The notes under the pieces are model-generated. The model was given only the letters and a program-made list of their open reading frames with translations, searched no databases and was not told the origin of the DNA. This document shows, piece after piece, positions 4,870 to 58,969 of a stretch of 64,000 nt of DNA. Each line of letters opens with the position of its first letter. Positions within the stretch are counted from its first letter, which is position 1. A program made the position numbers and the translations under genes. This stretch comes from an uncultured Gemmatimonadales bacterium (GTDB lineage: Bacteria > Gemmatimonadota > Gemmatimonadetes > Gemmatimonadales > GWC2-71-9): positions 256,001-320,000 of the forward strand of contig CAVOGR010000001.1 in NCBI GenBank assembly GCA_963695555.1, given 5' to 3'.

Positions 4870-5205
4870 GAAGTGTGGAGACGCCTCCGGGCGGCACCGC
4901 GCGGGAGAAGCAACAGGCTTTGGGTCTCCCCAGTGGCCTGAAGTCGAAGTTGTTGGGCAGGGAATAAAGAGGACAAGGATTCTGTGAGGCAAGCCTCAGC
5001 GGGACTGACGTTGAGGGAGCGGGCTGTCGGGAGGCGCTCCGGCGCGCGAGGAGGTGCCGGGGGAAGGCCGGCGGGACCAGCGGGGAGTGGCGTCGGCAAG
5101 GTGCTGCGGACTGGCCTGTTTCCTCGCATGGTTGTTGCATCCTCCCACTTAGATTGCATGCCTCGTAGTGGTATCCGGGCATATGGCCGCAGAATCGAGG
5201 GGCAT

Positions 5206-6858
5206 TTGGACCAACCGCAGGCCGCAGGGAGTTGGTTGGACGGGTTCTGGGACTCGCGCCGGCATGACCGTTGGGTGTTCGCGGCAGCCGGGTGCCTGCT
5301 GTTGGTGTACGTCTCCCTCACCTGGTACCTCCGCATTCCCGCGGTGACGACCGGGAATGACGATGCCACGTACCTCCACCTTGCCCGCGCCGTATCTCAC
5401 TTCAACTACCGGGAACTCTGGATAGTCGGCGAGCCGGTCCACTCGCACTACCCCCCGTTCTATCCGATTCTTCTCGCCGCCGTCGGCTTCTTCTCGGGCT
5501 ACCGCCTGGACGCCCTGCTCGTCGTGAACCACCTGTTGGTGATGGCCGCGCTCTGGCTGATGTTCGATGCCGTTCGCCGGTTGTGGTCCCCCGGCCTGGC
5601 GCTCTTGATGCTCGCGATGCTGGTGGTCAATCCCGGGCTGGTTCTGCTCGGTGGCCGTATCATGTCCGAGGCCCCATATCTGGCCCTCTCCTGCCTGGTG
5701 TTGTGGATACCGACGCGAACATCGACTCGTAGGACATGGGTCGGGGTGGCGTTTTGCGCGGCCGCCATCCTGGCCGCGCTGACCCGAAGCGCGGGGATTA
5801 CGCTCCTCGCCGCCGTGTTCGTGCTTTGGGCCCTGGACCGACGGTGGCGGGCACTCGGCGCCTTTACCCTCGCTTCCTCGATTCTGGTCGGATCGTGGCT
5901 GACGATGACCGCTCTCGCTCCGCACACGGTACACGGGTCGCTCTCCTACGTCGCGGACGCGGTACGAGGCCCGGCCGATCGCGGCATGCTCTTCACCCTC
6001 GTGCAACGGCTGGCCACACGGCTGCCGGACTATCTCGCCCGGGTCGTTGCCTGGGAGCTACCCCTGCCGGTGACCTCGAGCACGGTCCTCGACAACATCG
6101 CCTGGGCTCTGCTCCTCGTTGGACTGGGTGGGCTGGGCCTCGTGAGCACGTGGCGGCGTTGGAGGATCCTCCCGCTGTACCTTGGCGCCTATGGCGGGCT
6201 CTTGGCCGTATGGACCTGGGTGATCGGGCGGTTTCTCGCGCCGATCATCCCGATCATCGTCATCACGTTGCTGGCCGGAGCCGATGTGATCCGCCGCCGC
6301 TACGGTGCGCGGCTGGGTACCGCTCTCGCGGTCGGGTTGGCCGCCGTGGTTGTATTCACCGGAATCCGTGCCGATTGGGACGAGATCCGCGCGTTCCGCG
6401 GCTGTGACCGGACGGCGCCGCTCGAATCACCGGGCTGCTTCGATGCCGATCAGCGCAGTCTCTTTGCCGCGAGCCGCTTCGTCGCCGCCAATACGCCGGA
6501 TTCCTCAGTGGTGCTCACCGCGAAAGACGCGGTCTTTGCCCTCTACAGCGGCCGAAAGGTCGTCCGGCCGCGAGCCATCCTGGCGGCTGACCCGGCCGTG
6601 TTCATCGCCCAATTGGCGGAGAGCGGTGCGGACTACGTCTTCCTCGGCAGCACCGTTGGCATCGAACTCAAACCGTACTCCAAATCGCTCTTGCCGGCCT
6701 GTACTGCTCTGGATCTCGTGGAGTCGTTTCCCCCTCGATCCTTCCTTTTCCGGCCGGCTGCGACGATCACCTCCGACACGACGTCGGCGGCATGCCGTGT
6801 CCTGTCCGAGTATCGCGCCTGGGTGCGTGGCGGCGTGAATGAGGACTCCGAGCCCTAG
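5206..6858 (+). CDS. GT-C fold (ArnT/PMT/GT39-like) membrane glycosyltransferase
   Basis: GNDDATY acidic motif in the first loop, plus HYPPFYP, MSEAPY and LTRSAG; multi-TM with a soluble C-terminal domain. A TTG start at 5206 after GAGGGG is my preference; the track ORF begins at 4984. Confidence 0.8.
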   Translation: MDQPQAAGSWLDGFWDSRRHDRWVFAAAGCLLLVYVSLTWYLRIPAVTTGNDDATYLHLARAVSHFNYRELWIVGEPVHSHYPPFYPILLAAVGFFSGYRLDALLVVNHLLVMAALWLMFDAVRRLWSPGLALLMLAMLVVNPGLVLLGGRIMSEAPYLALSCLVLWIPTRTSTRRTWVGVAFCAAAILAALTRSAGITLLAAVFVLWALDRRWRALGAFTLASSILVGSWLTMTALAPHTVHGSLSYVADAVRGPADRGMLFTLVQRLATRLPDYLARVVAWELPLPVTSSTVLDNIAWALLLVGLGGLGLVSTWRRWRILPLYLGAYGGLLAVWTWVIGRFLAPIIPIIVITLLAGADVIRRRYGARLGTALAVGLAAVVVFTGIRADWDEIRAFRGCDRTAPLESPGCFDADQRSLFAASRFVAANTPDSSVVLTAKDAVFALYSGRKVVRPRAILAADPAVFIAQLAESGADYVFLGSTVGIELKPYSKSLLPACTALDLVESFPPRSFLFRPAATITSDTTSAACRVLSEYRAWVRGGVNEDSEP

Positions 6859-13752: not shown

Positions 13753-14897
13753 CGGCACTTCCCTTCCGTCTTTCGGTCATCGTGCCGGTGCATCAAGGAG
13801 CGGTAGTCCTCCCGAAGTCGCTCGGCGCTTTGGTCGAGAGCGATCTGCCTCGGGATGAATGGGAACTCATCGTGGTAGATGATGCCAGCACGGATGGCAC
13901 GGCGGCAGTCGCCGCCCGCTATGCGGATACCGTGGTTACCCTGGGACGCAAGCCGCAGGGGCCTTCCTATGCCAGGAACAGGGGTGTGGAAGCGGCGCGG
14001 GGGGATGTCGTCGTCTTCATCGATGCAGACGTATGCGTGCATCGCGAAACCCTCCGACGATTTGCGAGTGTCTTCGCCGAGAATCCCGGCTTCAGCGCGG
14101 TCTTTGGGTCCTACGATGCGGCGCCGCCGGCTCCCGGGCTGGTCTCCCAATATCGGAATCTTCTCCACCACTGGGTCCACCAACAGAATGGGGGAGAGGC
14201 GGAGACATTCTGGGCAGGATGTGGAGCGATCCGGCGTAACGTGTTCTTCGAAGCCGGCATGTACGACGAATGGCATTTTTCACGCCCGCAGATCGAGGAT
14301 ATCGAACTCGGCCACCGGCTCAAAGAACTTGGGCACCGTATCACCTTGGCACCCGAGATTCAGGCTACCCATCTGAAGCATTGGACGCTCCGCAACATGC
14401 TTACGACCGATCTCAGGGATCGTGGCGTCCCGTGGACCCGGCTCCTCATCCAACGCGGCATCGTATCGAAATCGCAATCGCTCAATCTCCGCTTGATTGA
14501 GCGGGTCAATACGGTACTGGTGTGGACCGCAGCCTTGTTTGCGATCGTTGCGCTGGGCTTCCGGGATGCGCGGTGGCTTCTTCTCAGCGTTGCGTGTGGG
14601 CTACCGGTGCTGTGGTTTAACCGGCACTTGTATGCGTTCTTCCGGCGGGAACGCGGCCTTTGGTTTGCCGTCCGAGCGATTCCCTTGCACTTGATCTACT
14701 ACTTCCTCAACGGTATTGCCGTGGGGTGGGGGTGGTTGGTGCATCACGCGGTCGGTGAACCTCAGCCTGCGGTCGCCGTCGAGGCGTTCTCCGAAGTTGG
14801 GCTTCAGAGCTGGCCCCCGGTTCCACGAAAGGCGCCCGATCGCTCGGCGGACAACGAGGGGCGCGTATCCAGTCAGCGGAGAACCGATGTCACCTGA
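13749..14897 (+). CDS. GT2 glycosyltransferase with C-terminal TM helices
   Basis: True start MTALPF overlaps the upstream stop (ATGA). Motifs VVDDASTDGT, GPSYARNRG, FIDAD and IEDIELG. Confidence 0.88.
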   Translation: MTALPFRLSVIVPVHQGAVVLPKSLGALVESDLPRDEWELIVVDDASTDGTAAVAARYADTVVTLGRKPQGPSYARNRGVEAARGDVVVFIDADVCVHRETLRRFASVFAENPGFSAVFGSYDAAPPAPGLVSQYRNLLHHWVHQQNGGEAETFWAGCGAIRRNVFFEAGMYDEWHFSRPQIEDIELGHRLKELGHRITLAPEIQATHLKHWTLRNMLTTDLRDRGVPWTRLLIQRGIVSKSQSLNLRLIERVNTVLVWTAALFAIVALGFRDARWLLLSVACGLPVLWFNRHLYAFFRRERGLWFAVRAIPLHLIYYFLNGIAVGWGWLVHHAVGEPQPAVAVEAFSEVGLQSWPPVPRKAPDRSADNEGRVSSQRRTDVT

Positions 14898-14915
14898 TCT
14901 TGGGAAGATGTCGCC

Positions 14916-15725
14916 GTGGCGTTGAGGGCAAGGATCGGGCGGGCCATCGAGGCATTCCACCTGCTCTCGATGTATGCCGCGGACTGGGAATCACGCCGTG
15001 CTCTGGCCGCTGCCTATCGCCGCACCCTCAGCACCACAACAGACCCAACCGAGATCGTCGTCCGGCTGCGTGTTGCCGATCTCGTGATTCCATTTCATAT
15101 GAGAATGTGTGATATCTACACCCTGGGCGAGATCCTTCATGAACGGCAATATCAGGTGCGTTCCCCCCTCCCGGAGCGCCCAACGATTATCGATGCCGGC
15201 GCGAATATCGGAGTAGCGACCCTCTGGTTCTTGGGCCAATATCCTGGTGCGAAGCTGGTTTGCGTTGAACCCGACCTCGGCAATTTCCAGTTGCTGCAGG
15301 CAAATTTTGATGCACATGCTGACGTGACCCTCGAGCAGGTTGCCCTCGGCGCGGCTGATGAATCCGTGACACTTCATCTGGCCGCGCATGGTGCGATGCA
15401 TTCAGTGGTAGATACCGAGCCAGCGGTGGGGATGCTCTCAGTTTCCCAGATCAGGCTCGACACCCTCATGGATCGTCATTGTATCAAACAGATTGATCTT
15501 TTAAAGCTCGATGTTGAAGGCAGCGAATTTGACTGCGTCCGGGGGCTCGGCGACCGTCTGGTCAACGTCAAGGTTATTGTGGGAGAGTTTCATGAGCGCC
15601 TCGTAGATGAAGACGCGTTCTACAGCTACCTTGAAGGGTGCGGCTTTCATCAAGTCCACAAGACATATTTCGGAACAGGACGTTCCGACGGCGTTCACGC
15701 ATTCGAAGTAGTCCGTGAAGAATGA
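14916..15725 (+). CDS. FkbM-family SAM-dependent methyltransferase
   Basis: IIDAGANIG, VEPD and LLKLDVEGSE motifs. Confidence 0.88.
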   Translation: MALRARIGRAIEAFHLLSMYAADWESRRALAAAYRRTLSTTTDPTEIVVRLRVADLVIPFHMRMCDIYTLGEILHERQYQVRSPLPERPTIIDAGANIGVATLWFLGQYPGAKLVCVEPDLGNFQLLQANFDAHADVTLEQVALGAADESVTLHLAAHGAMHSVVDTEPAVGMLSVSQIRLDTLMDRHCIKQIDLLKLDVEGSEFDCVRGLGDRLVNVKVIVGEFHERLVDEDAFYSYLEGCGFHQVHKTYFGTGRSDGVHAFEVVREE

Positions 15726-15794
15726 CATGGGTCGTGAACGTCCTAAACGCGTGCACCCGGTGATCGCCGGGGCCGAGCGTCGAGGAGAGGTCTG

Positions 15795-16169
15795 ATGCCC
15801 AACGTCACTCCCAGCGGAGCGGGTGCCACACCGGCACCTCTGGCGTATGCCTTTGCGCCGCTCCACAAGCGTGCCTTCGGCGTCGCGATAGGACTCGCGA
15901 CGGGATTGCTGGTTGCTGGTGCAACAGCTCTGTACGTCCTTCGTGGCCCGGATGTGGGCCCCGGCCTCGCGCTCCTGAGGCACTATTTCGCCGGCTATAC
16001 CGTTTCGTGGGAAGGTGCCATCGTTGGCTTCGGATGGGGATTCCTCTCCGGATTCGTCGCCGGGTGGTTCTTCGCATTTATTCGAAACCTCACGATAGGG
16101 GTCTTGATATTCTTCGTCCGGGTGAGGTCGGAGCTGTTACAGACTCGTGACTTCCTGGACCACATCTGA
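15795..16169 (+). CDS. Small hydrophobic membrane protein (paralog of the next gene)
   Basis: GAGGAGAGG RBS; hydrophobic 124 aa with AFGVAIG..LRGPDVG..LLRHYFAGYTVS. Confidence 0.75.
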   Translation: MPNVTPSGAGATPAPLAYAFAPLHKRAFGVAIGLATGLLVAGATALYVLRGPDVGPGLALLRHYFAGYTVSWEGAIVGFGWGFLSGFVAGWFFAFIRNLTIGVLIFFVRVRSELLQTRDFLDHI

Positions 16170-16204
16170 TCGACTGATCCACTTCGAGACGCGGGCGGTG
16201 ACCG

Positions 16205-16498
16205 ATGGCAAATGACGAAGACGAGATTCTCCAACACGCGCTGCTGCGGCTCAATGCCCGAGCCTGGGGGATCGCATTTGGGCTGCTCCTGGGCGGAGGG
16301 CTCTTCATCGCGACCAATGTGCTGGTGCTCAAGGGCGGGCCGAATGTGGGCCAGCACCTTCAGCTCTTGGCCGTCTTCTTCCCCGGCTTCCAGGTCACCT
16401 TCCTGGGCAGCATTATCGGGTTCATCTACGCATTCGTGGTCGGTTATGCACTCGGCCGCCTCGTCGGCCTGGTGTACAACCGATTGGCAGGCCCCTAA
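16205..16498 (+). CDS. Small hydrophobic membrane protein (paralog of the previous gene)
   Basis: 97 aa with AWGIAFG..LKGGPNVG..LLAVFFPGFQVT, which aligns by eye with 15795-16169. Confidence 0.75.
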   Translation: MANDEDEILQHALLRLNARAWGIAFGLLLGGGLFIATNVLVLKGGPNVGQHLQLLAVFFPGFQVTFLGSIIGFIYAFVVGYALGRLVGLVYNRLAGP

Positions 16499-16501
16499 CA
16501 C

Positions 16502-16527
16502 AGCAGCCGGCTCGGCGGCCGGCTGCT
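16502..16527. terminator. GC-rich hairpin between convergent genes, possible terminator
   Basis: AGCAGCCGGC-tcggcg-GCCGGCTGCT forms a perfect 10-bp stem immediately after the stop at 16498. The U-tract is weak. Confidence 0.5.
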
Positions 16528-16545
16528 TGTCCCCCTAGCATCGAG

Positions 16546-17862
16546 CCGTCCTACTGGGCGGCGATGGTGAGGACTCCGGTCGCGGGGATGCTGGTGACGA
16601 GGGGCTGGCCGGCGCCGAGGGTCACCGCGGGCCGGGCGGTGCGGAGCTCGGCGGCGGTGGTATAGGTCACGATGTAGCTGCCGGCCGGGAGGCCGGTCAC
16701 GCTGAACGAGCCCCCGGCGCCGGCCTTGACCACGACTGTCCAGCGGCCGGTGGTGTTCTTGAAGGCCAGGGGCGCAAAGGTGCCGCTGGTGCTGGTGGCC
16801 TGATAGCGGACCGCGCCGAGCCGCACATCCCGGAAATATTGTTGCAGGTAGCGGGTCCGGCTGTCGGGCCGGATCACCGGCGCCGTCGGGCTGCTCACGT
16901 CGACGTGATAGTACGCCCCCCCACCGTCATCGGTGTTGTTACACCAGCCCAGGATGAACTGCTGCCAGGCCGAGTTGCGCGCCAGGGTCAGATCCTGGTG
17001 CAGGTCCTGATAGCCGCTCCCGATGTGCTCCAGCATGCTGGTGCGGATCCCGGAGGCCTGGGCCCGCGCGCCGATGGTCTGCAGGTTCCCGGTGCTGACC
17101 CCGCCGTAGCGATGGTAGGCCAGGTCGGTGAGGTATTGGGTGGCCCGGGGCACCGCGATCAGCTGGTCGAAATAGGTGATGGCTCCGCCCATGTTGGCGT
17201 TGGAGGGGGCAATGAAATCGGGCCGGTACCCGGCCGCCGCCAGCCGGTCGCCCGCGGCCACCAAGGCCTGGCCGATCTGGGTCCCGGTCCACTGGGCATT
17301 GTCGGGCTCGAGCACGAGCTCCACGGCATCGGGGGTCCAGCCGTACCGGCTGGCCAGATGCTGAAACGCGACGAGGAGGAACTCGGCATACTCGGCCGGG
17401 GCCGTCTTGTGGAACAGGGTGCCCGCCCCTTGGGTGCTGAAATCGGTGTAGTTCAGGTTCACGTAGAGCTGCTCGCCCTGGGCCAAGAGCCGGGTCCGGA
17501 TCGGGGTGACCACGTTGTCGATGTAGTAGTCGAGCTCGGTGAAGTGGAAGCCGGCCGCGTTGGCGGTGGTGGGGCTGGTGTTATCGTTGATCGTGGCATA
17601 GCGCACGGTCCGCCACTCGGCGCGGGTGATCCGCCCCGCCTGGAGATCGGCATAGTAGTCGGTCGGATTCTCGACGCCGCTCCGGACCGGGAGCCGGAGC
17701 CGGTTGATCCCCAGCTCGGTCACCACCCGGTCGTACAGCGGGTTCCGGTAATTGGCGAAGGCGACCGGATCACACTCGTCCTGCCCCGCCTGGGCCGTCG
17801 CCTCCCAGCCCGTCATCGTCTGCAGCGCCGCCGTCGGCACCACCGTGATTACCGGCCCGCTG
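16546..17862. repeat. ~1.3 kb direct repeat, copy 1 (catalytic module)
   Basis: Aligns without gaps to 18603-19901 (offset 2039) and to 20746-22062 (offset 4200), with ~14-15 internal substitutions against each. Confidence 0.97.
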
Positions 17863-18527
17863 ATTGGCGTTGTGATTCTGATGGTGGCAGACCCTGACGA
17901 TTGAGTGCCGGCATGGGTTGCGGTGGCGGCGTAGCTGCCGGACGTCGAGCCGGCAGTGTAATAGCCGCCTGGATCGATGGTGCCGCCGGTCGCGTTCCAA
18001 CTCACGCCTACTGGCACCGTCGACCCGTCGCTCAGGCGACCCTCGGCACTGAACTGTCGTGATTCAGAGGCGTTCAGGGTCGTGGAAGAGGGTGATACGA
18101 TGATTGCTTCCAAATCGGGTGGAGGCGGAGGCACCACCTCGACACCCGAGCTGTCCTTCTTTGCCCTCCCTTTGGCTTTGCCCCGGCCGTTGCCGCTACC
18201 TCGTACCTTCGCCGCGCCGATTGCGGATGAGACGAAGAGCCCGTTGGCGCTGATGTCGCCGTTTTCCGCGCTCCACTCCATGTCAACAGCAACCGAATCG
18301 CCAGTGCCCGTCAATCCGTAGGCCTGGAATTGCAGGGGTTGGTTGACTTCGGCTACAGCTGTTCTGGGGATGATGACGAGTGTGGCGATGTCGGTACTAG
18401 GATCTTCGGGGCCGAGTCCTTCTCGGAGCTCACCAGGAGCGCAGGAGGCCAGGAGGAGCGGGCAGAGCATCCACCCCGCTATTCGAGAAGCGGCCAGCCT
18501 GCGAGACAGCTTGAAGGTATAGGTCAC
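16551..18527 (-). CDS. Lipoprotein with two Ig-like (Big_2-like) domains and a GH30-like glycoside hydrolase domain (copy 1)
   Basis: AGGAG RBS with GTG start; lipobox LLASC; Ig-like W.ATGG.I..G..TAG. Clan GH-A-like motifs LEPDN, AYHRY and SMLEH, and a GH30-like tail QQYFRDVRLGAVR..LAFKN..GRWTVVV. Confidence 0.75.
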   Translation of the reverse strand: MTYTFKLSRRLAASRIAGWMLCPLLLASCAPGELREGLGPEDPSTDIATLVIIPRTAVAEVNQPLQFQAYGLTGTGDSVAVDMEWSAENGDISANGLFVSSAIGAAKVRGSGNGRGKAKGRAKKDSSGVEVVPPPPPDLEAIIVSPSSTTLNASESRQFSAEGRLSDGSTVPVGVSWNATGGTIDPGGYYTAGSTSGSYAATATHAGTQSSGSATIRITTPISGPVITVVPTAALQTMTGWEATAQAGQDECDPVAFANYRNPLYDRVVTELGINRLRLPVRSGVENPTDYYADLQAGRITRAEWRTVRYATINDNTSPTTANAAGFHFTELDYYIDNVVTPIRTRLLAQGEQLYVNLNYTDFSTQGAGTLFHKTAPAEYAEFLLVAFQHLASRYGWTPDAVELVLEPDNAQWTGTQIGQALVAAGDRLAAAGYRPDFIAPSNANMGGAITYFDQLIAVPRATQYLTDLAYHRYGGVSTGNLQTIGARAQASGIRTSMLEHIGSGYQDLHQDLTLARNSAWQQFILGWCNNTDDGGGAYYHVDVSSPTAPVIRPDSRTRYLQQYFRDVRLGAVRYQATSTSGTFAPLAFKNTTGRWTVVVKAGAGGSFSVTGLPAGSYIVTYTTAAELRTARPAVTLGAGQPLVTSIPATGVLTIAAQ

Positions 18528-18592
18528 GAGTGCTTCTCCTGCGGCTGGTGGAGTCAGGAGGCCCTGGGGGAGGGCCTCCCGGGGTGAGGTAC

Positions 18593-20311
18593 TTATTGGC
18601 TAATGGTGAGGACCCCGGTCGCGGGGATGCTGGTGACGAGGGGCTGGCCGGCGCCGAGGGTCACCGCGGGCCGGGCGGTGCGGAGCTCGGCGGCGGTGGT
18701 ATAGGTCACGATGTAGCTGCCGGCCGGGAGGCCGGTCACGCTGAACGAGCCCCCGGCGCCGGCCTTGACCACGACTGTCCAGCGGCCGGTGGTGTTCTTG
18801 AAGGCCAGGGGCGCAAAGGTGCCGCTGGTGCTGGTGGCCTGATAGCGGACCGCGCCGAGCCGCACATCCCGGAAATATTGTTGCAGGTAGCGGGTCCGGC
18901 TGTCGGGCCGGATCACCGGCGCCGTCGGGCTGCTCACGTCGACGTGATAGTACGCCCCCCCACCGTCATCGGTGTTGTTACACCAGCCCAGGATGAACTG
19001 CTGCCAGGCCGAGTTGCGCGCCAGGGTCAGATCCTGGTGCAGGTCCTGATAGCCGCTCCCGATGTGCTCCAGCATGCTGGTGCGGATCCCGTAGGCCTGG
19101 GCTCGCGTCCCGATGGTCTGCAGGTTCCCGGTGCTGACCCCGCCGTAGCGATGGTAGGCCAGATCGGTGAGGTATTGGGTGGCCCGGGGCACCGCGACCA
19201 GCTGGTCGAAATAGGTGATGGCTCCGCCCATGTTGGCGTTGGAGGGCGCGATGAAGGCGGGCCGGTACCCGGCCGCCGCCAGCCGGTCGCCCGCGGCCAC
19301 CAAGGCCTGCCCGATCTGGGTCCCGGTCCACTGGGCGTTGTCGGGCTCGAGCACGAGCTCCACGGCATCGGGGGTCCAGCCGTACCGGCTGGCGAGATGC
19401 TGAAACGTGACGAGGAGGAACTCGGCATACTCGGCCGGGGCCGTCTTGTGGAACAGGGTGCCCGCCCCTTGGGTGCTGAAATCGGTGTAGTTCAGGTTCA
19501 CGTAGAGCTGCTCGCCCTGGGCCAAGAGCCGGGTCCGGATCGGGGTGACCACGTTGTCGATGTAGTAGTCGAGCTCGGTGAAGTGGAAGCCGGCCGCGTT
19601 GGCGGTGGTGGGGCTGGTGTTATCGTTGATCGTGGCATAGCGCACGGTCCGCCACTCGGCGCGGGTGATCCGCCCCGCCTGGAGATCGGCATAGTAGTCG
19701 GTCGGATTCTCGACGCCGCTCCGGACCGGGAGCCGGAGCCGGTTGATCCCCAGCTCGGTCACCACCCGGTCGTACAGCGGGTTCCGGTAATTGGCGAAGG
19801 CGACCGGATCACACTCGTCCTGCCCCGCCTGGGCCGTCGCCTCCCAGCCCGTCATCGTCTGCAGCGCCGCCGTCGGCACCACCGCGATCACCGGCCCGCT
19901 GCCCGGCGCGACGACGGCCACCGTAGCTGACGTCGTGACAGTGCCGTTTGCCACTACGGCTGTGACCTGGAAGTTTCCAACCGCCGGGCCCGCGGTATAG
20001 GTACCGGCAGCGTCGATGGCCCCGCCGGTCGCACTCCAGTCGACAGTGACGCCGACCGAGTCGCCGTTCTGGGTGCGCCCGTATGCTGCGAACGGGATTG
20101 CTTGGTTGGCCTCGACGGTAGCCGAACTCGGCGTCACCACGAGGGCCGAGAGGCCACTCGAATCGGGTCCAATGCCTTCCTTCAAATCTCCCGACGCACA
20201 GGCAGCGAGCAGGCTCAGGAGCGGTCCAATGACGAGCGGGCGTAGTGCCCGTCTTCGTCCGGCCAATTCACTGGGCAACTTCATGGTCACACTTGCTGAA
20301 CCTCGACTCAT
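18593..20311 (-). CDS. Lipoprotein with one Ig-like domain and a GH30-like domain (copy 2)
   Basis: AGGAG RBS, lipobox LLAAC, and the same ~430-aa C-terminal module as copy 1. Confidence 0.75.
   Translation of the reverse strand: MSRGSASVTMKLPSELAGRRRALRPLVIGPLLSLLAACASGDLKEGIGPDSSGLSALVVTPSSATVEANQAIPFAAYGRTQNGDSVGVTVDWSATGGAIDAAGTYTAGPAVGNFQVTAVVANGTVTTSATVAVVAPGSGPVIAVVPTAALQTMTGWEATAQAGQDECDPVAFANYRNPLYDRVVTELGINRLRLPVRSGVENPTDYYADLQAGRITRAEWRTVRYATINDNTSPTTANAAGFHFTELDYYIDNVVTPIRTRLLAQGEQLYVNLNYTDFSTQGAGTLFHKTAPAEYAEFLLVTFQHLASRYGWTPDAVELVLEPDNAQWTGTQIGQALVAAGDRLAAAGYRPAFIAPSNANMGGAITYFDQLVAVPRATQYLTDLAYHRYGGVSTGNLQTIGTRAQAYGIRTSMLEHIGSGYQDLHQDLTLARNSAWQQFILGWCNNTDDGGGAYYHVDVSSPTAPVIRPDSRTRYLQQYFRDVRLGAVRYQATSTSGTFAPLAFKNTTGRWTVVVKAGAGGSFSVTGLPAGSYIVTYTTAAELRTARPAVTLGAGQPLVTSIPATGVLTISQ
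18603..19901. repeat. ~1.3 kb direct repeat, copy 2
   Basis: Near-identical to 16564-17862; differences cluster in one block equivalent to 17053-17369. Confidence 0.97.
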
Positions 20312-20745
20312 TCGCGAACTCCTGTCCTTGTTCGACTCAATCTCACGAATGATGTCGAAGGCGATATGTCATTACAACTTCCAATTATTCAACAGTAGCT
20401 ACAGCAGTCACGGTCACAAGATCATACAAACAATTATCTCATATGATCTTAGCTTGTCCTGCAGTCGTGCCACTCATTGTTAAGAATTAAGACGACCACT
20501 GTCGTCTAGCTCTGCCGGTTTTGCCGCCTGGGTCGTTTCCCGTGCGAACGGCGGAGCTTCTGAATAGCTCTATGCACTGATCATTCCAGACTGGTCAAGA
20601 GACGATAAATATATGATTTGTATACGGTTATCGGTTGGCTCCCGGTCAACTGGGGGCGTCGGAGATTGCCGGATTCCAGGAGTTTTTCCCGGTTTGAGAC
20701 CAAGTCGGAGGGAAACTTGTTCAGGTTCGGAGTCAGGCAGGCATT

Positions 20746-22062
20746 CCGTCCTACTGGGCGGCGATGGTGAGGACTCCGGTCGCGGGGATGCTGGTGACGA
20801 GGGGCTGGCCGGCGCCGAGGGTCACCGCGGGCCGGGCGGTGCGGAGCTCGGTGGCGGTGGTGTAGGTCACGATGTAGCTGCCGGCCGGGAGGCCGGTCAC
20901 GCTGAACGAGCCCCCGGCGCCGGCCTTGACCACGACTGTCCAGCGGCCGGTGGTGTTCTTGAAGGCCAGGGGCGCGAAGGTGCCGCTGGTGCTGGTGGCC
21001 TGATAGCGGACCGCGCCGAGCCGCACATCCCGGAAATATTGTTGCAGGTAGCGGGTCCGGCTGTCGGGCCGGATCACCGGCGCCGTCGGGCTGCTCACGT
21101 CGACGTGATAGTACGCCCCCCCGCCGTCATCGGTGTTGTTACACCAGCCCAGGATGAACTGCTGCCAGGCCGAGTTGCGCGCCAGGGTCAGATCCTGGTG
21201 CAGGTCCTGATAGCCACTGCCGATATGCTCCAGCATGCTGGTGCGGATCCCGGAGGCCTGGGCCCGCGCGCCGATGGTCTGCAGGTTCCCGGTGCTGACC
21301 CCGCCGTAGCGATGGTAGGCCAGGTCGGTGAGGTATTGGGTGGCCCGGGGCACCGCGATCAGCTGGTCGAAATAGGTGATGGCTCCGCCCATGTTGGCGT
21401 TGGAGGGGGCAATGAAATCGGGCCGGTACCCGGCCGCCGCCAGCCGGTCGCCCGCGGCCACCAAGGCCTGGCCGATCTGGGTCCCGGTCCACTGGGCATT
21501 GTCGGGCTCGAGCACGAGCTCCACGGCATCGGGGGTCCAGCCGTACCGGCTGGCCAGATGCTGAAACGCGACGAGGAGGAACTCGGCATACTCGGCCGGG
21601 GCCGTCTTGTGGAACAGGGTGCCCGCCCCTTGGGTGCTGAAATCGGTGTAGTTCAGGTTCACGTAGAGCTGCTCGCCCTGGGCCAAGAGCCGGGTCCGGA
21701 TCGGGGTGACCACGTTGTCGATGTAGTAGTCGAGCTCGGTGAAGTGGAAGCCGGCCGCGTTGGCGGTGGTGGGGCTGGTGTTGTCGTTGATCGTGGCGTA
21801 GCGCACGGTCCGCCACTCGGCGCGGGTGATCCGCCCCGCCTGGAGATCGGCGTAGTGGTCGGTCGGATTCTCGACGCCGCTCCGGATCGGGAGCCGCAGC
21901 CGGTTGATCCCCAGCTCGGTCACCACCCGGTCGTACAGCGGATTCCGGTAATTGGCGAAGGCGACCGGATCACACTCGTCCTGCCCCGCCTGGGCCGTCG
22001 CCTCCCAGCCCGTCATCGTCTGCAGCGCCGCCGTCGGCACCACCGCGACCACCGGCCCGCTG
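20746..22062. repeat. ~1.3 kb direct repeat, copy 3
   Basis: Near-identical to 16546-17862 at an offset of exactly 4200. Confidence 0.97.
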
Positions 22063-22433
22063 CCGGGCGGCACCACGACAACCGTCGCCGAGCCGAGCAG
22101 TCCGTCGGCGCTGGCGGTTACGGAGAAGTTGCCGGCGGTGGCCCCGGCGGTGAAGCTGCCGGACGCATTAATGGCGCCACCGGTGGCCGTCCAGGCCAGT
22201 GTTGGGCAGGCAACGGTCTTCCCGGTCGAGTCCAGGCAATCCGCGACGAAGCTCCGGGATTGACCTGGCTCCATTGCAGCTGCCTCGGGTGAGATCAGGA
22301 TGTGCGCCACGCTCGGACTGGGGCCGTTCAGGCCCGGGGCACCATCGCCGCAGCCGCCGCACGCTCCGATTCCACAGATGAGCGCGGCCAAACTGGCGCG
22401 GAATCTGCTGGTCTTACCACCCGTGAATGACAT
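20751..22433 (-). CDS. Probable lipoprotein with one Ig-like domain and a GH30-like domain (copy 3)
   Basis: Signal peptide with GIGACGGC, and the same C-terminal module as copies 1 and 2. Confidence 0.75.
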   Translation of the reverse strand: MSFTGGKTSRFRASLAALICGIGACGGCGDGAPGLNGPSPSVAHILISPEAAAMEPGQSRSFVADCLDSTGKTVACPTLAWTATGGAINASGSFTAGATAGNFSVTASADGLLGSATVVVVPPGSGPVVAVVPTAALQTMTGWEATAQAGQDECDPVAFANYRNPLYDRVVTELGINRLRLPIRSGVENPTDHYADLQAGRITRAEWRTVRYATINDNTSPTTANAAGFHFTELDYYIDNVVTPIRTRLLAQGEQLYVNLNYTDFSTQGAGTLFHKTAPAEYAEFLLVAFQHLASRYGWTPDAVELVLEPDNAQWTGTQIGQALVAAGDRLAAAGYRPDFIAPSNANMGGAITYFDQLIAVPRATQYLTDLAYHRYGGVSTGNLQTIGARAQASGIRTSMLEHIGSGYQDLHQDLTLARNSAWQQFILGWCNNTDDGGGAYYHVDVSSPTAPVIRPDSRTRYLQQYFRDVRLGAVRYQATSTSGTFAPLAFKNTTGRWTVVVKAGAGGSFSVTGLPAGSYIVTYTTATELRTARPAVTLGAGQPLVTSIPATGVLTIAAQ

Positions 22434-22529
22434 CGAACTTCCTTGTTTCTCGACCTGAAGAGCCGTAAGCTTGGCTCCCAGATGGCCTCAAGTCAATCCC
22501 AGTTTTCACGGCAACGTCATGGAGATTCG

Positions 22530-30651: not shown

Positions 30652-31533
30652 ATGGATCATTTGGATCAACTGGAAAACACGAGTGTTCAGATTCTTCGCG
30701 AGGCGTACGCGAATTTCAAACACCTGGGCATGCTGTGGTCGATCGGCAAGGACAGCACGGTGCTCTGTGGCTAAGCCGGAAGGCCTTCTTCGGCCACGTG
30801 CCGTTTCCGCTCATTCACATCGATACGTCATTCAAGATCCCGGAAATGATCGAGTACCGGGACCGGCTCGTCGCGGAGTGGCACCTCAACTTGATCTATG
30901 GGCAGAACCAGGTCGCGCTCGCCGAGAAGCGTACCTTTCCCGATGGCGCCGTCGACCGGCTCACCTGCTGCGGTCTGCTCAAGACCGAAGCGCTCAAGAA
31001 CACCTTGAGCGGGGCAGTGGCCCCGGTATCGCTTCAATCACGTGAAGAAGACCTACGAACTGGACAGCAATACCGAGCCGTTCACGGGGGTTATCGTTGG
31101 AGCCCGGGCGGACGAAGAGGGCAGCCGGTCGAAGGAACGATATTTCTCTGCGCGGACGGACCAGAACGAGTGGGACGTTGCCGACCAGCCGCCGGAATTC
31201 TGGAATCAGTACAAGACCGAGTTTGCCCCGGGGACCCACGTGCGGATCCACCCCTTGTTGGATTGGACGGAGCTCAATATCTGGGAGTACATCGAGCGGG
31301 AGCAAATCCCAACGGTGTCGTTGTACTACGATCAGGGCGAAGGCAAGCGCTACCGCTCGCTCGGATGCTGGCCGTGCACCAATCCGGTCGATTCCTCAGC
31401 GTCGGATGTTGAACAGATCATCGAGGAGCTCCGCACGGGCAAGTTCGCCAACATCGCCGAGCGATCCGGCCGGGCGCAGGACAAGGACGACGGCGGCGGG
31501 CTGGAAACGCTCCGGCGTGACGGATATATGTAG
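30652..31533 (+). pseudogene. cysD: Sulfate adenylyltransferase subunit 2 with two compensating frameshifts (probably sequencing errors)
   Basis: Begins [25 protein letters not shown] shift at ~30765 continues to IHIDT and [11 protein letters not shown] shift at the GGGG run 31011-31014 continues to [21 protein letters not shown] and YRSLGC. Confidence 0.88.
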
Positions 31534-33468: not shown

Positions 33469-35694
33469 CTACGGTTGAATTGCACCGTCTGGCGGCACCG
33501 TGCCCGGAAGAAAGGGACCGGCCAGGATGCTGACCCGCGTATCGCCATCACGTACGGGACCGATGACCCAGACAGGCCGATCGCTGAAATGGGCGACCAC
33601 CGCCTGACGGTGAGCGTGTCCCGCGTCGAAGGCGTAGATCGTCGCCGAATCTCCCAATGTGCGCGGGTTCAAGTTGAAGGCGCTCTGATAGATCGCCCGG
33701 TCTTGGGCATGCACAAAGACCAGGGCGTGCTCGAATTGATTCCGCTGCGCGAGAAGTCGGATGGCTCCGCCCACGTCACGGTAGCGATAGTATTTCGTAG
33801 CGCTGCGCCAGGGGAGGACAGTGAGTACGGCGCAGAGGCTCGCTGCGACCACGAACACGCCGGTGCGATACATAGGAAGCGGATGATCGCGCCCCGCCCG
33901 TAGGCCAACCGCTTCGGCCCCACGAACAGTCAGCACCACAAGCGGAATGAGTGCCTGGTACCAGTAGCGCGGGCCGAGGTCGGGGCCACCGCTGAACCAA
34001 TAAGCGCTGTGGCCCACGACGACCACAGTCACCAGAAGGATCATCAGCCAATCGGCGCGGCGTCGCTTTAGCAGCGGAAGGGCCACCACCGCCAATAGGA
34101 GCGACCCGCAGGCCCACCCGAAGAGGTCGAAATTGGCCATGAAGAGATTCTTGTTCGCGTTCAACACGACGTCCACGAAGCCGTGGCCGGGAAGCGGGTC
34201 GATGTTGGTCCAGGCAGGAATTCCAATGTGCGGACCGAATCCCAGGCGGTCGACTCCCGGCCCCCAGGTGCGGTCGGTCCACATCATGTGCGGAGCATAC
34301 GAAGGGCTTCCGGTAAGCGCGGCGTTATAGGCGAAGACAATGGCTGCCACGCCAGCCGCCGACACGGCGTACACCAGCATGGAGCGCACACGCGCGCGAG
34401 ATCCGCTCAAACCGACTATCCAGAGCAATGCGACGCTCCCCACCAACATCGCTTCGATCGGGCGCGTCAGAAACAGTGCACCGCTAGCCACGCCCGCCAC
34501 CAGCGCCCATCCGGCCGTGGGACGCCGTCGTTCGAGTTCGACCGCGAGGAGCGTCAAGAGGCCGAAGGCCAAGGCCACGGCATGCCCCATGAACGACGAG
34601 GAAGTGAAAATGAACCACGGAGAGACTCCCAAGAGGCATACCGAGAGGTTGGCAATGCTCCGATCGTACAAGAGGTGGACCACACGATGGGCCACAAGGA
34701 CGGTAAGACCGGCAATTAGTGGATTCACCAGCCACGGGAGGCCCACCAGCGCACCCAGAGCCAGCACGGCCGGCCATCCGGGAAAAGCGTATCCAAACCA
34801 TCTCGGCCCGTCGACAATCGTTTCGGCAACATGGAAAGAAGCCGAGTCAGGCGGAGCCGGGAGAAAGAGCTGCCCGGTGGACAGATACTTGGCCTGGAAC
34901 AGGTACGAGATGCTGTCGTCGATGTGAGGAACGCCCTCCATCACGAACCAGCTCACCAAGGCGGTCACCACCACCACCCATGCCGCGACGCCCCAGGGCA
35001 GGGAGCGATCCCAGGGCCGCAGTTCCTCACGAGTCGCATCCAGTGTCACATGGTGGTCCAGCCACGCGACCGTGCGCCTGAGAGGTTCCGCTGGAGCCAC
35101 GCCGGCGACGAGGAGAAGGTTGAGTAGTCCAATGAGAATGACCCATGCCGCTAAGGCAAATTCTCCGACGGCTCGAGCCGCGCTCTCGGTCGGCACAACG
35201 ATGGCAAACGCGAGGAGCCCGAGGACCCCCAGCGTGAGGAGCAGTCCACGGGGCCCGCTCCCCAGCAACGACCGAGCCACGCTCCGGGCATGAGTGCTGA
35301 CGGTAGGCCATGTCCTGACAGCCAAGACGATGCACACGATCGCTTGGATGGTGAGGATGCCCAGCACGAGCGTCGGGGCCTCGAGCAGGCGGCTCCAGGG
35401 GACGTAGTGTTGGTAGATGGCGTACCGGGGTGCGTCGATCAGCTGGAGCGCGCTGGCCTGGCCGGCGGCCGCGAGTCCTATGAGCGCCGTCATCGATCGC
35501 CACGGGCTCTCCCACATCAGGGCCAGCGCCAACAGCGCCGCACCGCTGACGAGCATCGGCAGGACGGTGGGATCGTAGTCGACGGCAGATGGCAGCGCGC
35601 GCCATCGGGTAACCGCCACCCACAGGCCGATGAGCCCTAGGACGGATAGCCCTCCTCGGTAGAGCCCTGAGAGCGCAGGTCGCCGTGGCGCCAT
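33469..35694 (-). CDS. Large GT-C-like membrane glycosyltransferase (paralog of 50235-52409)
   Basis: PHIDDSISYLFQA, FPGWPAVLA, LTRP, DPLPGHG and GPDLGPRYWY motifs. Confidence 0.75.
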   Translation of the reverse strand: MAPRRPALSGLYRGGLSVLGLIGLWVAVTRWRALPSAVDYDPTVLPMLVSGAALLALALMWESPWRSMTALIGLAAAGQASALQLIDAPRYAIYQHYVPWSRLLEAPTLVLGILTIQAIVCIVLAVRTWPTVSTHARSVARSLLGSGPRGLLLTLGVLGLLAFAIVVPTESAARAVGEFALAAWVILIGLLNLLLVAGVAPAEPLRRTVAWLDHHVTLDATREELRPWDRSLPWGVAAWVVVVTALVSWFVMEGVPHIDDSISYLFQAKYLSTGQLFLPAPPDSASFHVAETIVDGPRWFGYAFPGWPAVLALGALVGLPWLVNPLIAGLTVLVAHRVVHLLYDRSIANLSVCLLGVSPWFIFTSSSFMGHAVALAFGLLTLLAVELERRRPTAGWALVAGVASGALFLTRPIEAMLVGSVALLWIVGLSGSRARVRSMLVYAVSAAGVAAIVFAYNAALTGSPSYAPHMMWTDRTWGPGVDRLGFGPHIGIPAWTNIDPLPGHGFVDVVLNANKNLFMANFDLFGWACGSLLLAVVALPLLKRRRADWLMILLVTVVVVGHSAYWFSGGPDLGPRYWYQALIPLVVLTVRGAEAVGLRAGRDHPLPMYRTGVFVVAASLCAVLTVLPWRSATKYYRYRDVGGAIRLLAQRNQFEHALVFVHAQDRAIYQSAFNLNPRTLGDSATIYAFDAGHAHRQAVVAHFSDRPVWVIGPVRDGDTRVSILAGPFLPGTVPPDGAIQP

Positions 35695-50234: not shown

Positions 50235-52409
50235 CTACGGCCTTGGCGAAAACGGCTCGAGCTCCCCGGCGCGGACCGGGCCTTGGATCACCCGATAGCC
50301 TCCGCCGGTCCTGCTTGGACCTTCAACCAGCCAAATCGGCCGGTTGGCGTAGTGGGCGAGAATCGAGTCGCGCACTTCCGGCGTCCTGTCCCAGGCATAG
50401 ACAGGGCCGTCCGCTTCCCAGTCGAGGGAGTTATACACCGCGGCGGAATGGTAGTCGGGATGGCGTTTTCCTTGGATGAGCACCAGGCTCCGCCCGAACC
50501 CTGCCTCCCGGGCCAGATGGGTAATGCCCGGCCTCATGCCCCGGTAGTGGTGGTACTTGTCGATCGCGCGCCAGGGGACAAATGTCACCAGCGCCATAGC
50601 GGAGAGGGTGAGTACGCCAAGGACGACTCGCCGCTCTGCGAACCGGGCTTGAACGAGGTCCGCGAGAATGATGGCCCCTCGCGCCGTGAGTCCAACGCAC
50701 GGAACGAGGATCAGGTACCAGTAGCGGGCGCCAAAATCCGGACCGCCGCTGAACCAATAGAAACTGTGGATTCCGACCACTGCCAAGGCACTGGTCAGGA
50801 GGAGGTGGTCGCTTCGGTTCATGCGTCTGGAAAACACCGCCAGCAGGACGAGTAGCAACGACCCTGTGGCCCATCCAAACAACTCGACGTTGGTTGCGAA
50901 GAGGTTGAAGTTGGCGTTTACCACCACGTCGACGACCCCGTGTCCGGGTAACGGGTCTAGCCCGCTCCATCCGACACCGCGTTCGGGTCCGAAACCGAGG
51001 GCATTGGTCTTCGGGCCATAGAAGGCGTCAAAGTACTCCATGACTGGGAATACTCGCGCCACTCCGGTGAGGGCCTGGTTGTACCACAGGTTCACCAGCC
51101 CTCCGCCGGCTGCTGCTGCGATCATGCCGGTAATGGCGCCGATCGAGAGTCGCTTGCCTCCGAGACCGATGCTCCAAAGGCCCAGCAGTGCCGCCACGAC
51201 GAGCGCATCGAGTGGTCGAACCAGGCTGATGACGCCCATTGCCCCACCTGCAAGCCAGGCCCACCTGGCGTGGCCGGATGCTCGGCAAGCCTGGACACCG
51301 AGGGCCGCGGTGAGGGCGCATGTCAGGGTGAATTGGTGGGCCATGAAGCTCATGGCCAGGAACAAGCTCCAGGGGGAGCAGGCCAGGAGTACCGCTCCCA
51401 TGCGGGCGGTTCTCCGGTCGTACAAGCGGCCAAGAAGGACGTAGGCGAGCACCACGTTGAGCGCGGCCAAGAGGGGATTGACGATCCAGGGCGCTCCCAT
51501 GCGGACGCCCAACGCCAAGATCGCCGGCCAGCCGGGCGGGAATACCGAGTAGACCTTGTCGGCCCCGAAATAGAGCAGATCGACGCTGAATCCCCCCAGC
51601 ACCGGGGGAGGCGGCAGCCAGAGCATTCCCGCGGCGAAGGTGCGGGCCTGGATCAGGTATGCCACTTCGTCCGGCACGTGGGGGTGGCGCTGATAGGAGA
51701 GAAGGGTGAGGGCCAGGCTCACGACCAAGGTGAATGCGGCGGCCAGGAGGACGAACCGATCGACGCGGGCGCGCCCGTCCTCGGGCGTGACATGGTCGAG
51801 CCCGAGTTGGCCGAGACTGGCAAGACGCCCGGATTCGAGCGCGGGGCCGGGAATGGCCCAGACCGCGAGGAGGATCGTTCCCAGAGCAAGGGCCTGGGCG
51901 TATGTAGCAAGTACGAGCTCGGTCACGGTGGTCGTTATCGATCGCGACACGGTCGCGCTGGCGAGCGCGACGAGCATGCCGATGGCGACGACTCGCCAGG
52001 GCCGGAATGAGCGGCCGATCCAGGTGCGGATCGGAGGCCAGCGCCGGGCGATGCCAACCACGACCAGGACGGTCTGTAGGCCCAACCATCCGCTGAGGAG
52101 CGCGTTCGGGCCCGAGGGGAGTTGGCCCAGGGGGACGAAATGCTGGTAGGCAACGTTGGGCCCCGCGCGGATGAGCTGGAGCGTGACGGCCTGGCCGACG
52201 ATCGCAACCGCGAGCCAGAGTCCGGCTTTTCGGAGGTACCCGGCCCACGTCAGCGCGGCGGCGCCCAGCGCCGCGGCGAGGGCGAAGGCCAGGTTTACCT
52301 GGGGGACCAGAGCGTTCTCGGCGTCCCTGAATCGAGGATCGAGAAGGGCCCACGCCAGGGTGAGGACGGCGGCGGTCCAGAAGAGCCACTTGGGAAGTAC
52401 TGGCCTCAT
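50235..52409 (-). CDS. Large GT-C-like membrane glycosyltransferase (paralog of 33469-35694)
   Basis: Start MRPVLPKW; PHVPDEVAYLIQA, FPPGWP, LVRP, DPLPGHG and GPDFGARYWY. Confidence 0.78.
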   Translation of the reverse strand: MRPVLPKWLFWTAAVLTLAWALLDPRFRDAENALVPQVNLAFALAAALGAAALTWAGYLRKAGLWLAVAIVGQAVTLQLIRAGPNVAYQHFVPLGQLPSGPNALLSGWLGLQTVLVVVGIARRWPPIRTWIGRSFRPWRVVAIGMLVALASATVSRSITTTVTELVLATYAQALALGTILLAVWAIPGPALESGRLASLGQLGLDHVTPEDGRARVDRFVLLAAAFTLVVSLALTLLSYQRHPHVPDEVAYLIQARTFAAGMLWLPPPPVLGGFSVDLLYFGADKVYSVFPPGWPAILALGVRMGAPWIVNPLLAALNVVLAYVLLGRLYDRRTARMGAVLLACSPWSLFLAMSFMAHQFTLTCALTAALGVQACRASGHARWAWLAGGAMGVISLVRPLDALVVAALLGLWSIGLGGKRLSIGAITGMIAAAAGGGLVNLWYNQALTGVARVFPVMEYFDAFYGPKTNALGFGPERGVGWSGLDPLPGHGVVDVVVNANFNLFATNVELFGWATGSLLLVLLAVFSRRMNRSDHLLLTSALAVVGIHSFYWFSGGPDFGARYWYLILVPCVGLTARGAIILADLVQARFAERRVVLGVLTLSAMALVTFVPWRAIDKYHHYRGMRPGITHLAREAGFGRSLVLIQGKRHPDYHSAAVYNSLDWEADGPVYAWDRTPEVRDSILAHYANRPIWLVEGPSRTGGGYRVIQGPVRAGELEPFSPRP

Positions 52410-52432
52410 GGAAGCATCACCGCGTGTTGTGC

Positions 52433-52843
52433 TCAGGCCGTCGGGTCGCGGTTCGTGGACCGCGTTCCTGTCGCCTGGACAGCATTCACCGCATCGTCTC
52501 GAGCCTCCGGAGTCCCTCTGGTCGCATCCTGGATAGCCAGGCTTCGGATGATCTCGGTCACATCGGAGTTCAGCTTGCGGTACTTGTGGTAGAAATAGAC
52601 CACGGAGGCCAGGAACGAGAGCGCAATCAAGTACGAGACGAGGTCGGCTCCACGGCCGATCCCGAAGAACCGCGCAATGGTGTTGGTGAGGTCCGGCTGG
52701 GCGATGGTGATTCCGGCCGCGAGCCACAGGACCATGGAGAGCGCGGCGACCCAGCGGTGACCGTCTCTCCGTAGGAACCGCACGCCACTTCGGAGGAAGA
52801 GCAGTGCCGCAATGGGCACCGCGATCAACTGGAACATGGTCAT
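52433..52843 (-). CDS. DUF2304-family membrane protein
   Basis: Start MTMFQL coupled to the GT2 stop; IARFFGIGRGADLVSY..EIIRSLAI. This family is a typical partner of DPM1-like GT2 enzymes. Confidence 0.8.
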   Translation of the reverse strand: MTMFQLIAVPIAALLFLRSGVRFLRRDGHRWVAALSMVLWLAAGITIAQPDLTNTIARFFGIGRGADLVSYLIALSFLASVVYFYHKYRKLNSDVTEIIRSLAIQDATRGTPEARDDAVNAVQATGTRSTNRDPTA

Positions 52844-58852: not shown

Positions 58853-58939
58853 ATAATCTCCAACGGTAGGCAGTAGGCGGTTCTGGCGTGCTATGTATTC
58901 GGCGCAGGCGACTTTTCGTCGCACGAGGCCCACTGTGCT

Positions 58940-58955
58940 AGCAGGAACCGTGCCC
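58940..58955 (-). promoter_or_regulatory. Putative sigma-54 promoter
   Basis: Minus strand reads GGGCACG-GTTC-CTGCT, in the gap upstream of 58852. Confidence 0.5.
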
Positions 58956-58969
58956 AGCCTGGTCCGGGC

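Follow-up and report, generated by a model that had tools for sequence, protein, structure and literature searches.

The window analysed here is a stretch of 64,000 nucleotides (nt) from contig CAVOGR010000001.1 of a sediment-type Gemmatimonadales bacterium (assembly GCA_963695555.1, hereafter G000; 14 contigs, 87% complete), and the subject of this work is an array of three neighbouring genes within it, g1, g2 and g3, all on the minus strand. According to the open reading frame (ORF) calls the three genes are intact, and their 3' parts, which encode the C-terminal modules of the proteins, are repeats of one another. The g1 gene (16551-18527) encodes a protein of 658 amino acids (aa) with a lipobox-like LASC motif (Cys29), two predicted immunoglobulin (Ig)-like repeats and a module with a predicted GH30 fold. 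The g2 gene (18593-20311; 572 aa) combines a lipobox-like LAAC motif (Cys38), one predicted Ig-like domain and the module, and g3 (20751-22433; 560 aa) a lipobox-like IGAC motif (Cys25), one predicted Ig-like domain and the module. Bacterial lipoproteins have an N-terminus composed of a positively charged N-region, a hydrophobic stretch and a lipobox cysteine; the N-termini of g1-g3, in which the three motifs were recognised by eye, are predicted to be lipoprotein-like and Ig-like. The Pfam match of g1 to Big_2 is weak (E 0.036, below the cut-off), and Big_2 was found on homologs. Among the three paralogs these N-termini are just ~40-45% alike.

The three modules, copy 1 (16564-17845), copy 2 (18603-19884) and copy 3 (20764-22045), also on the minus strand, lie at offsets of 0, +2039 and +4200 and align without gaps over a homogenised stretch of 1,282 nt; those of g2 and g3 differ at 8 residues. 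No fourth copy was found in the 3.57-Mb G000 assembly, and exact matches to the g1, g2 and g3 proteins came only from this assembly's own contig.

A first-pass annotation of this DNA had described the copies as a block mosaic, and its coordinates, its block counts and the gap-free alignment were all reproduced. Over 16564-17845, 29 sites are variable; copy 2 has 15 private sites, copy 3 has 14 and copy 1 has none. The pairwise differences per 1,282 nt are 15 (copies 1 and 2), 14 (copies 1 and 3) and 29 (copies 2 and 3). After a lone copy-2 site at 16575, copy 1 is identical to copy 2 in block A (16652-17025, limits 16576-17052), where copy 3 differs at 7 sites, then to copy 3 in block B (17053-17369, limits 17026-17582), where copy 2 differs at 14 sites, and again to copy 2 in block C (17583-17742, limits 17370-17845), where copy 3 differs at 7 sites. 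This order (1/7/14/7) divides the 29 sites into 4 runs (exact p 5.1e-6) and contradicts a random interspersion of the substitutions. Moreover, 21 of the 29 sites fall on third codon positions (p 2e-5), which argues that they are evolved alleles and not random errors.

The first site private to copy 1 is at 17846, as previously noted, and the absence of private sites before it is weak as independent evidence. With no more than three to four independent blocks, 25-50% of the possible orderings leave one copy that never stands apart from the other two, and in 8-17% this copy is copy 1; its lack of private sites largely follows from the blocks and was rejected as a separate line of evidence. The edges of the homogenised stretch also needed correction. 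At the 3' end the identity of copies 1 and 3 is real, both g1 and g3 ending in ...IAAQ and g2 in ...ISQ. The ISQ ending recurs in P0162, a g2-type protein of another lineage; 16546-16563 was accordingly rejected as a conversion tract and represents an old end, specific to gene position, that lies beyond the homogenised stretch. At the 5' end, the abrupt stop reported at the SGPV linker (17846-17862, minus strand) holds for copy 1, for which the linker is the limit of homogenisation, but the similarity of copies 2 and 3 continues ~45 nt beyond it. In another lineage, similarity reaches ~100 nt into the Ig domain (L045 vs L087, 91% over 200 nt).

Comparison with related genomes, which had been proposed as a check, returned position-orthologous N-termini, genome-specific modules and, in other strains, recombined alleles. 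In the DNA tree of the modules, the three G000 copies group with that of the near strain L044 (100/99), copy 2 having the longest branch, and the two copies of G002 form a pair (100/100). The tree of the adjacent Ig domains is arranged by gene position, with groups for g1 (100/99), the g2 pair (99/97) and the g3 pair (99/97); all 10 rows were kept in each of these trees, and L045 g2 and G002 join the g2 pair weakly. Protein trees, from which 6 of the 17 proteins were left out (split motif without match), repeat this picture of modules by genome and Ig domains by position. For instance, P0163 (g1 type) and P0162 (g2 type), which come from different source collections, have modules that are identical except for the last residues and 73-74% like those of G000, and the Ig domain of P0163 is 94% like that of g1. 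In the sister species G004, the two copies share, within ~640 nt, 31 sites unlike all three G000 copies; they differ mutually at 31 sites, mostly in one patch (16803-16937) that is a divergent patch of G004 copy 3's own. The two G002 copies are 89% alike and 71-72% like those of G000. Overall, the module nt identity of the G000 paralogs is 98-99%, against 71-79% to the orthologs of G001 and G002, synonymous sites included: a module is closer to its paralogs in the genome than to its position-orthologs elsewhere. A control is provided by tandem pairs of the same family in L069, L072, L073 and L117, which group by position (orthologs 79-97%, paralogs 75-78%); near-identity is therefore not forced by protein constraint, and the homogenisation is lineage-specific.

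The module was found in three of four same-genus genomes and in 24 of 300 genomes of the family; G003 gave no module match in a genome that is 94% complete, and is hence scored as not found rather than absent. In G004, one contig has the 3' half of g1 in its flank, and another has the N-terminus of g2 together with g3. The metagenome contigs L045 and L087, from a lineage ~68-83% identical in DNA, carry the g3 end, g2 and the g1 start, and G002 has its two module copies at the same place. The g1 N-terminus has orthologs in L045 and P0163 (92% aa), that of g2 in G004 (90% aa) and L045 (57% aa), and that of g3 in G004 (93%), L087 (69%) and G001 (62%). Since the N-termini have position-orthologs in other lineages, the triplication is old; synteny and the unconverted parts, which track position, place the duplication before the split of the genomes. 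The three N-termini and their unique junctions recur in independent assemblies (L016, L017, L044, L045, L087, P0163), and Logan contigs of the public run X1 (records 3 and 4) cross both the flank of copy 1 and the g2-g1 junction.

Two segments of the array have a particular history. The N-terminal region of g1 (17862-18527) is 93% identical in nt to L045, against 68-77% for neighbouring parts, and is joined there to the module type of the L045 lineage; judging from these sequences, the N-terminal half of g1 has apparently been transferred from one lineage to another. Rapid or adaptive evolution of the module was considered and rejected: the L045 module has 76% nt identity, no lower than the 68-83% of its neighbours, and the unusual closeness is that of the g1 N-terminus. 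When G002 (L015) is compared with window positions 14830-22440, the flanking genes are 89-96% identical and the compared parts of the segment 66-78%, with two modules and no fkbM match. The low identity of the G002 modules was rejected as a module-specific feature, all compared parts from ~15.8 to 22.4 kb being at 66-78% and the flanks at 89-96%, and the G002 segment is read as a block replacement from a more distant relative.

Three intact genes, a block pattern, N-termini that track gene position and modules that track the genome are thus seen directly. We attribute this pattern, with a probability of about 80%, to ongoing interlocus gene conversion (concerted evolution) limited to the shared module. 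Segmental conversion that homogenises the module and leaves the N-termini distinct had been suggested from the G000 array, and the independent genomes support it, in that the module tree follows the genome and the Ig tree the position. Three old tandem paralogs would keep their distinct N-terminal domains, and the shared 1.3-kb module would be repeatedly converted. Homologous recombination, copying tracts some hundreds of nt in length, would act only between sufficiently similar stretches, and this requirement would make conversion stop at the linker and near the stop codon. The blocks of copy 1 would be what the most recent tracts left behind. Copy 1 probably resembled copy 3 at first and then received two copy-2 tracts (A and C); an equally short alternative is a single long copy-2 tract, inside which a copy-3 tract (B) was placed later. 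The donor DNA may have been a sister chromosome or a related strain. The block sizes (0.16-0.56 kb) fit the walk of ~500 nt each way measured for tuf conversion in Salmonella, as described in the relevant part of PMC5485169.

Alleles of the module are also shared across copies and recombined between strains, the comparison sequences being short-read contigs that are perhaps partly collapsed. The near strain L044, anchored in the unique flank of copy 1 and aligned over 2,260 nt without gaps, has 8 differences in 1,245 nt of flank and 18 in 1,015 nt of module (p 0.016); 9 of these 18 are G000 copy-2 or copy-3 alleles, and the excess is gone without them (p 0.63). At the copy-1 position, L044 carries copy-3 alleles at 5 of the 7 block A sites, and when the three copies are taken together with L044, 20 of the 231 site pairs show all four gametes. 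The G000 copy nearest to the sister species is copy 3: the block sites of G004 copy 3 match it at 21 of 28 positions (6 of 7 in block C) and match copy 2 at the other 7. A word screen covered 24 public runs, and contigs from six of them (X1, X2, X3, X4, X5 and X7) were compared. Those of X2, X5 and X7 present further allele combinations, X7 with a linked copy-2-like block B haplotype, and a 236-nt contig of X3 carries the copy 1/2 alleles of block C with 0 differences. The minority alleles of at least 26 of the 29 sites were seen in independent sequences.

Several observations weigh against conversion as read from this assembly. No reads or contigs spanning the G000 array were found in the 24 runs, each of which holds less than half of the region's words (best 0.25), and the contigs of the six runs compared are short, of low depth and from other strains. 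The full copy-1 haplotype is present in no independent sequence among the close relatives and the six runs' contigs, and position 17019 is G in close relatives and four runs and C in copies 1 and 2. The L044, G004, G001 and L045 assemblies are fragmented, and because their contigs break inside the repeat, their per-copy sequences may be partly collapsed; matches of 100% at contig ends are 112-127 nt long, about one assembly word. The window has at least two frame breaks elsewhere, i.e., cysD (30683-31533) split across two frames and a frame switch at ~41330 relative to G001, both probably consensus errors. In addition, there are near-duplicate contig pairs (C12/C4, C9/C5 and C6/C1, 91-99%), C9/C5 being 96% alike with many one-base gaps; together with the frame breaks, these pairs suggest a mixture of strains or haplotigs, or low depth. 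Finally, sequence alone cannot separate a reciprocal double crossover from non-reciprocal conversion.

These observations bear above all on the possibility that concerted evolution is real in the genus and that the exact mosaic of copy 1 is an artefact of consensus building or polishing, in which reads belonging to other copies or to co-occurring strains overwrote blocks. The frame breaks and near-duplicate contigs of a metagenome-type assembly would fit such an origin, as would the zero private sites of copy 1, the different block A of L044 copy 1 and the lack of the 17019 C in close relatives. On the other hand, the unique spacers of 0.75-0.88 kb within a 1.14-Mb contig should allow anchored long reads to phase the copies, the three ORFs are intact and the L044 alignment is free of gaps, the A/B switch occurs within 28 nt, zero private sites are fairly often expected with three to four blocks, and G004 presents patchy sharing too. 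We consider this explanation unlikely, and if it were correct the cross-species signal would remain intact. The warning of an assembly artefact in the first-pass annotation therefore keeps its force for the phase of copy 1 and loses it for the existence of the three copies and their alleles.

In another scenario, the copies would have arisen recently within this lineage, by duplication or unequal crossover, and then swapped N-termini, with no long-term conversion. Tandem duplication is accepted as a competing explanation where genes lie in tandem, as stated in a section of PMC6053082, and both the tandem position and the evident movement of the g1 N-terminus between lineages speak for this scenario. 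However, the same order, N-termini and C-terminal ends are found in lineages ~75% identical in DNA, and every lineage would have had to rebuild the three-gene layout. The DNA and protein trees largely refute this scenario, which we regard as improbable; neither unequal crossover, the other mechanism suggested initially, nor recent duplication is supported on its own, old unique sequence bounding each copy on both sides. It is more improbable still that the triplication itself is an assembly artefact, with one or two copies real: G002 does have two copies and the short-read relatives break at the repeat, but the three N-termini and unique junctions present in independent assemblies refute it at the level of the lineage, and the X1 contigs run through two of the places concerned. 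Purifying selection or codon preference alone, acting on an enzyme with many near-invariant residues and with no DNA exchange, has a negligible probability, given the homogenised synonymous sites, the arrangement of the differences in blocks, the ~75% identity of the paralog pairs in the control lineage and the 31 lineage-specific sites shared by the G004 copies, which refute it.

The homogenised module measures 431 aa and has 1,171 relatives at the level of 50%-identity clusters. No Pfam family matches it above the cut-off, and the g1-g3 proteins have no Pfam glycoside hydrolase (GH) family, with no GH30 match up to E 0.1. The family profile matches GH30 structures (E 3.6e-13), and in the nearest Atlas cluster Glyco_hydro_30C is found on 43% of members. 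A structure model built on 108 sequences reached a predicted local distance difference test score (pLDDT) of 97 and was compared via re-alignment of Foldseek's top 1000 chains. The best structural matches are GH30 xylanases (Z 35, root-mean-square deviation 2.4-3.0 Å over 331-385 residues, 12-21% identity), and the top 29 matches include GH30 entries with Z 29.5-35.4 over model residues 1-431. In the predicted fold, a (beta/alpha)8 barrel carries an additional beta-sandwich, the first strand of which is the N-terminal one, in agreement with the GH30 layout; this layout and the positions of the catalytic Glu residues of clan GH-A, at strands 4 and 7, are described in the section of PMC13431644 that deals with them.

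The predicted acid/base is module residue E180 (g1 E407, motif LEPD), encoded on the minus strand at 17307-17309 (also 19346-19348 and 21507-21509) and located after strand 4 (174-176). The predicted nucleophile is E273 (g1 E500, motif MLEH), encoded on the same strand at 17028-17030 (also 19067-19069 and 21228-21230), after strand 7 (268-271). Both residues are present in all three copies and are conserved in homologs (E180 in 148 of 150, E273 in 149 of 150). As a rule, an Asn directly precedes the acid/base Glu in clan GH-A (NEP). All three copies of the module have Leu there instead, as do 131 of 150 homologs, Asn being present in 15 of 150, and the module thus departs from GH30 at this position; E180 aligns with the NEP of 6m5z. 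Xylanases of GH30 subfamilies 7, 8 and 10 (PDB 1nof, 7n6o, 3kl3, 4fmv and 8idq) resemble the module in fold and in the two catalytic Glu residues, but they differ from it in sequence (the identity of 12-21% given above), in having NEP instead of LEP, and in that the module lacks a GH30 Pfam match. The GH30-like identity suggested from the sequence is thus supported by the predicted structure, and the module is predicted to resemble a GH30 retaining glycosidase, with family membership staying at the level of fold. No substrate can be transferred from GH30, because the top subfamilies tie in Z.

The 27-nt stretch in which the A/B switch falls (17026-17052) holds the codon of the predicted nucleophile, which is probably a coincidence. 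Elsewhere in the family, an acidobacterial locus (Acidobacteriota, L125:2026-10835) contains a 4-kb tandem duplication that includes the module; its copies are 93-95% alike, and the second copy has a single-base gap.

The spacer between g3 and g2 (20312-20750, 439 nt) is AT-rich, with two weak promoter-like sites and a terminator-like hairpin. On the basis of these elements, g2-g1 may be transcribed separately from g3, the promoter scan having returned 2 promoter-like sites against 1.4 expected, i.e., chance level. Terminator-like sites number 8 against 3.0 expected, half of them being one site that recurs inside the repeat copies, and neither kind of site gave a convincing signal.

Nearly the whole window (1-64000) can be described as one locus of glycan synthesis and modification. 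It encodes seven GT2, two GT4-type and three PMT-type transferases, epimerases, a deacetylase, a Wzx-type flippase, UbiA and a priming transferase, as well as three sulfatases and sulfate-activation genes. Large proteins without Pfam match are encoded at 4984-6855, 33472-35694, 50238-52727 and 57377-60994. From 47 genome loci of homologs, 20 with long flanks were taken, and 79 of their 140 called ORFs were scanned; a glycosyltransferase neighbour was detected at 10 of the 20, the other 10 having none among the neighbours scanned, a count without a background rate. We predict that g1-g3 are surface or periplasmic lipoprotein retaining glycosidases, which would process the locus's own glycan. 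The glycoside hydrolases PslG, PelA and PgaB, encoded in exopolysaccharide synthesis clusters, likewise illustrate a hydrolase gene within a glycan biosynthesis locus; g1-g3 differ from them in belonging to a different family, in lying on the strand opposite to their neighbours and in being triplicated with differing N-termini.

Two other duplications were observed on the contig that contains the window. About 15 kb before it, a second tandem pair (G000:C1:237751-241337) encodes proteins of ~575 and 420+ aa, and the start of the former is likewise lipoprotein-like. The pair is ~88-90% alike over 1.1-1.2 kb with identical runs of up to 92 nt (permutation p 0.0025), and is possibly an older, partly homogenised pair. 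At G000:C1:724777-730022, a gene whose repeated CxxCH-type motifs look by eye like those of a multiheme cytochrome c is duplicated with 92% similarity, its first copy being broken by many one-base gaps.

The mechanism is already known from mtrA and tuf, and the unnamed GH30-fold family is the fresher part. According to the passages on mtrA-1 and mtrA-2 in PMC4632066 and PMC6053082, these genes of Methanococcales and Methanomicrobiales are tandem paralogs in which the shared domain is converted and the accessory domain differs. The likeness to g1-g3 therefore extends to an old tandem duplication, homogenisation of the shared domain and a distinct accessory domain; the difference is that g1-g3 are three predicted extracytoplasmic glycosidases, whereas the mtrA product belongs to a core complex as one of its subunits. 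Conversion in g1-g3 is also far shallower in time, as it is shown across a single genus-level lineage and another lineage with the family lacks it. The tufA and tufB genes of Salmonella, as portrayed in part of PMC5485169, share with the array repeats of ~1.2 kb that are ~1% apart and continuous tracts of hundreds of nt bounded by homology; they are whole-gene duplicates, far apart and inverted, whereas g1-g3 share a domain only, in a direct tandem array. In the literature searched, we found no paper on the g1-g3 array or on the GH30-fold family, and conversion in extracytoplasmic glycosidases is likewise unreported there. The main text of PMC6053082 has 0 matches for 'hydrolase' and 'Gemmatimonad', its 26-gene tables being in supplements outside the word search.

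A broader picture, which we offer as speculative and rather doubtful, is that the array would be a swappable catalytic cassette, in which three different lipoprotein N-termini persist and are even exchanged across species, one version of the module spreads through all copies within each lineage, and enzyme specificity tracks the cell's own surface glycan. The module would then be an undescribed GH30-fold family (LEPD and not NEP; 1,171 clusters at 50%), often serving glycan biosynthesis loci and acting on a 2-substituted or sulfated sugar.

The array does not add a new mechanism; it is a clean, controlled bacterial case of domain-limited concerted evolution, in which recent tracts are visible in one genome and which has a built-in contrast in another lineage of the family that has escaped homogenisation. 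It also carries a caution, since near-identity of modules in such arrays is no sign of misassembly or of recent duplication. The parts most worth following are the apparent transfer of the g1 N-terminus between lineages and the GH30-fold family; this large unnamed family, in which the NEP motif is altered, makes a reasonable candidate for enzyme discovery.

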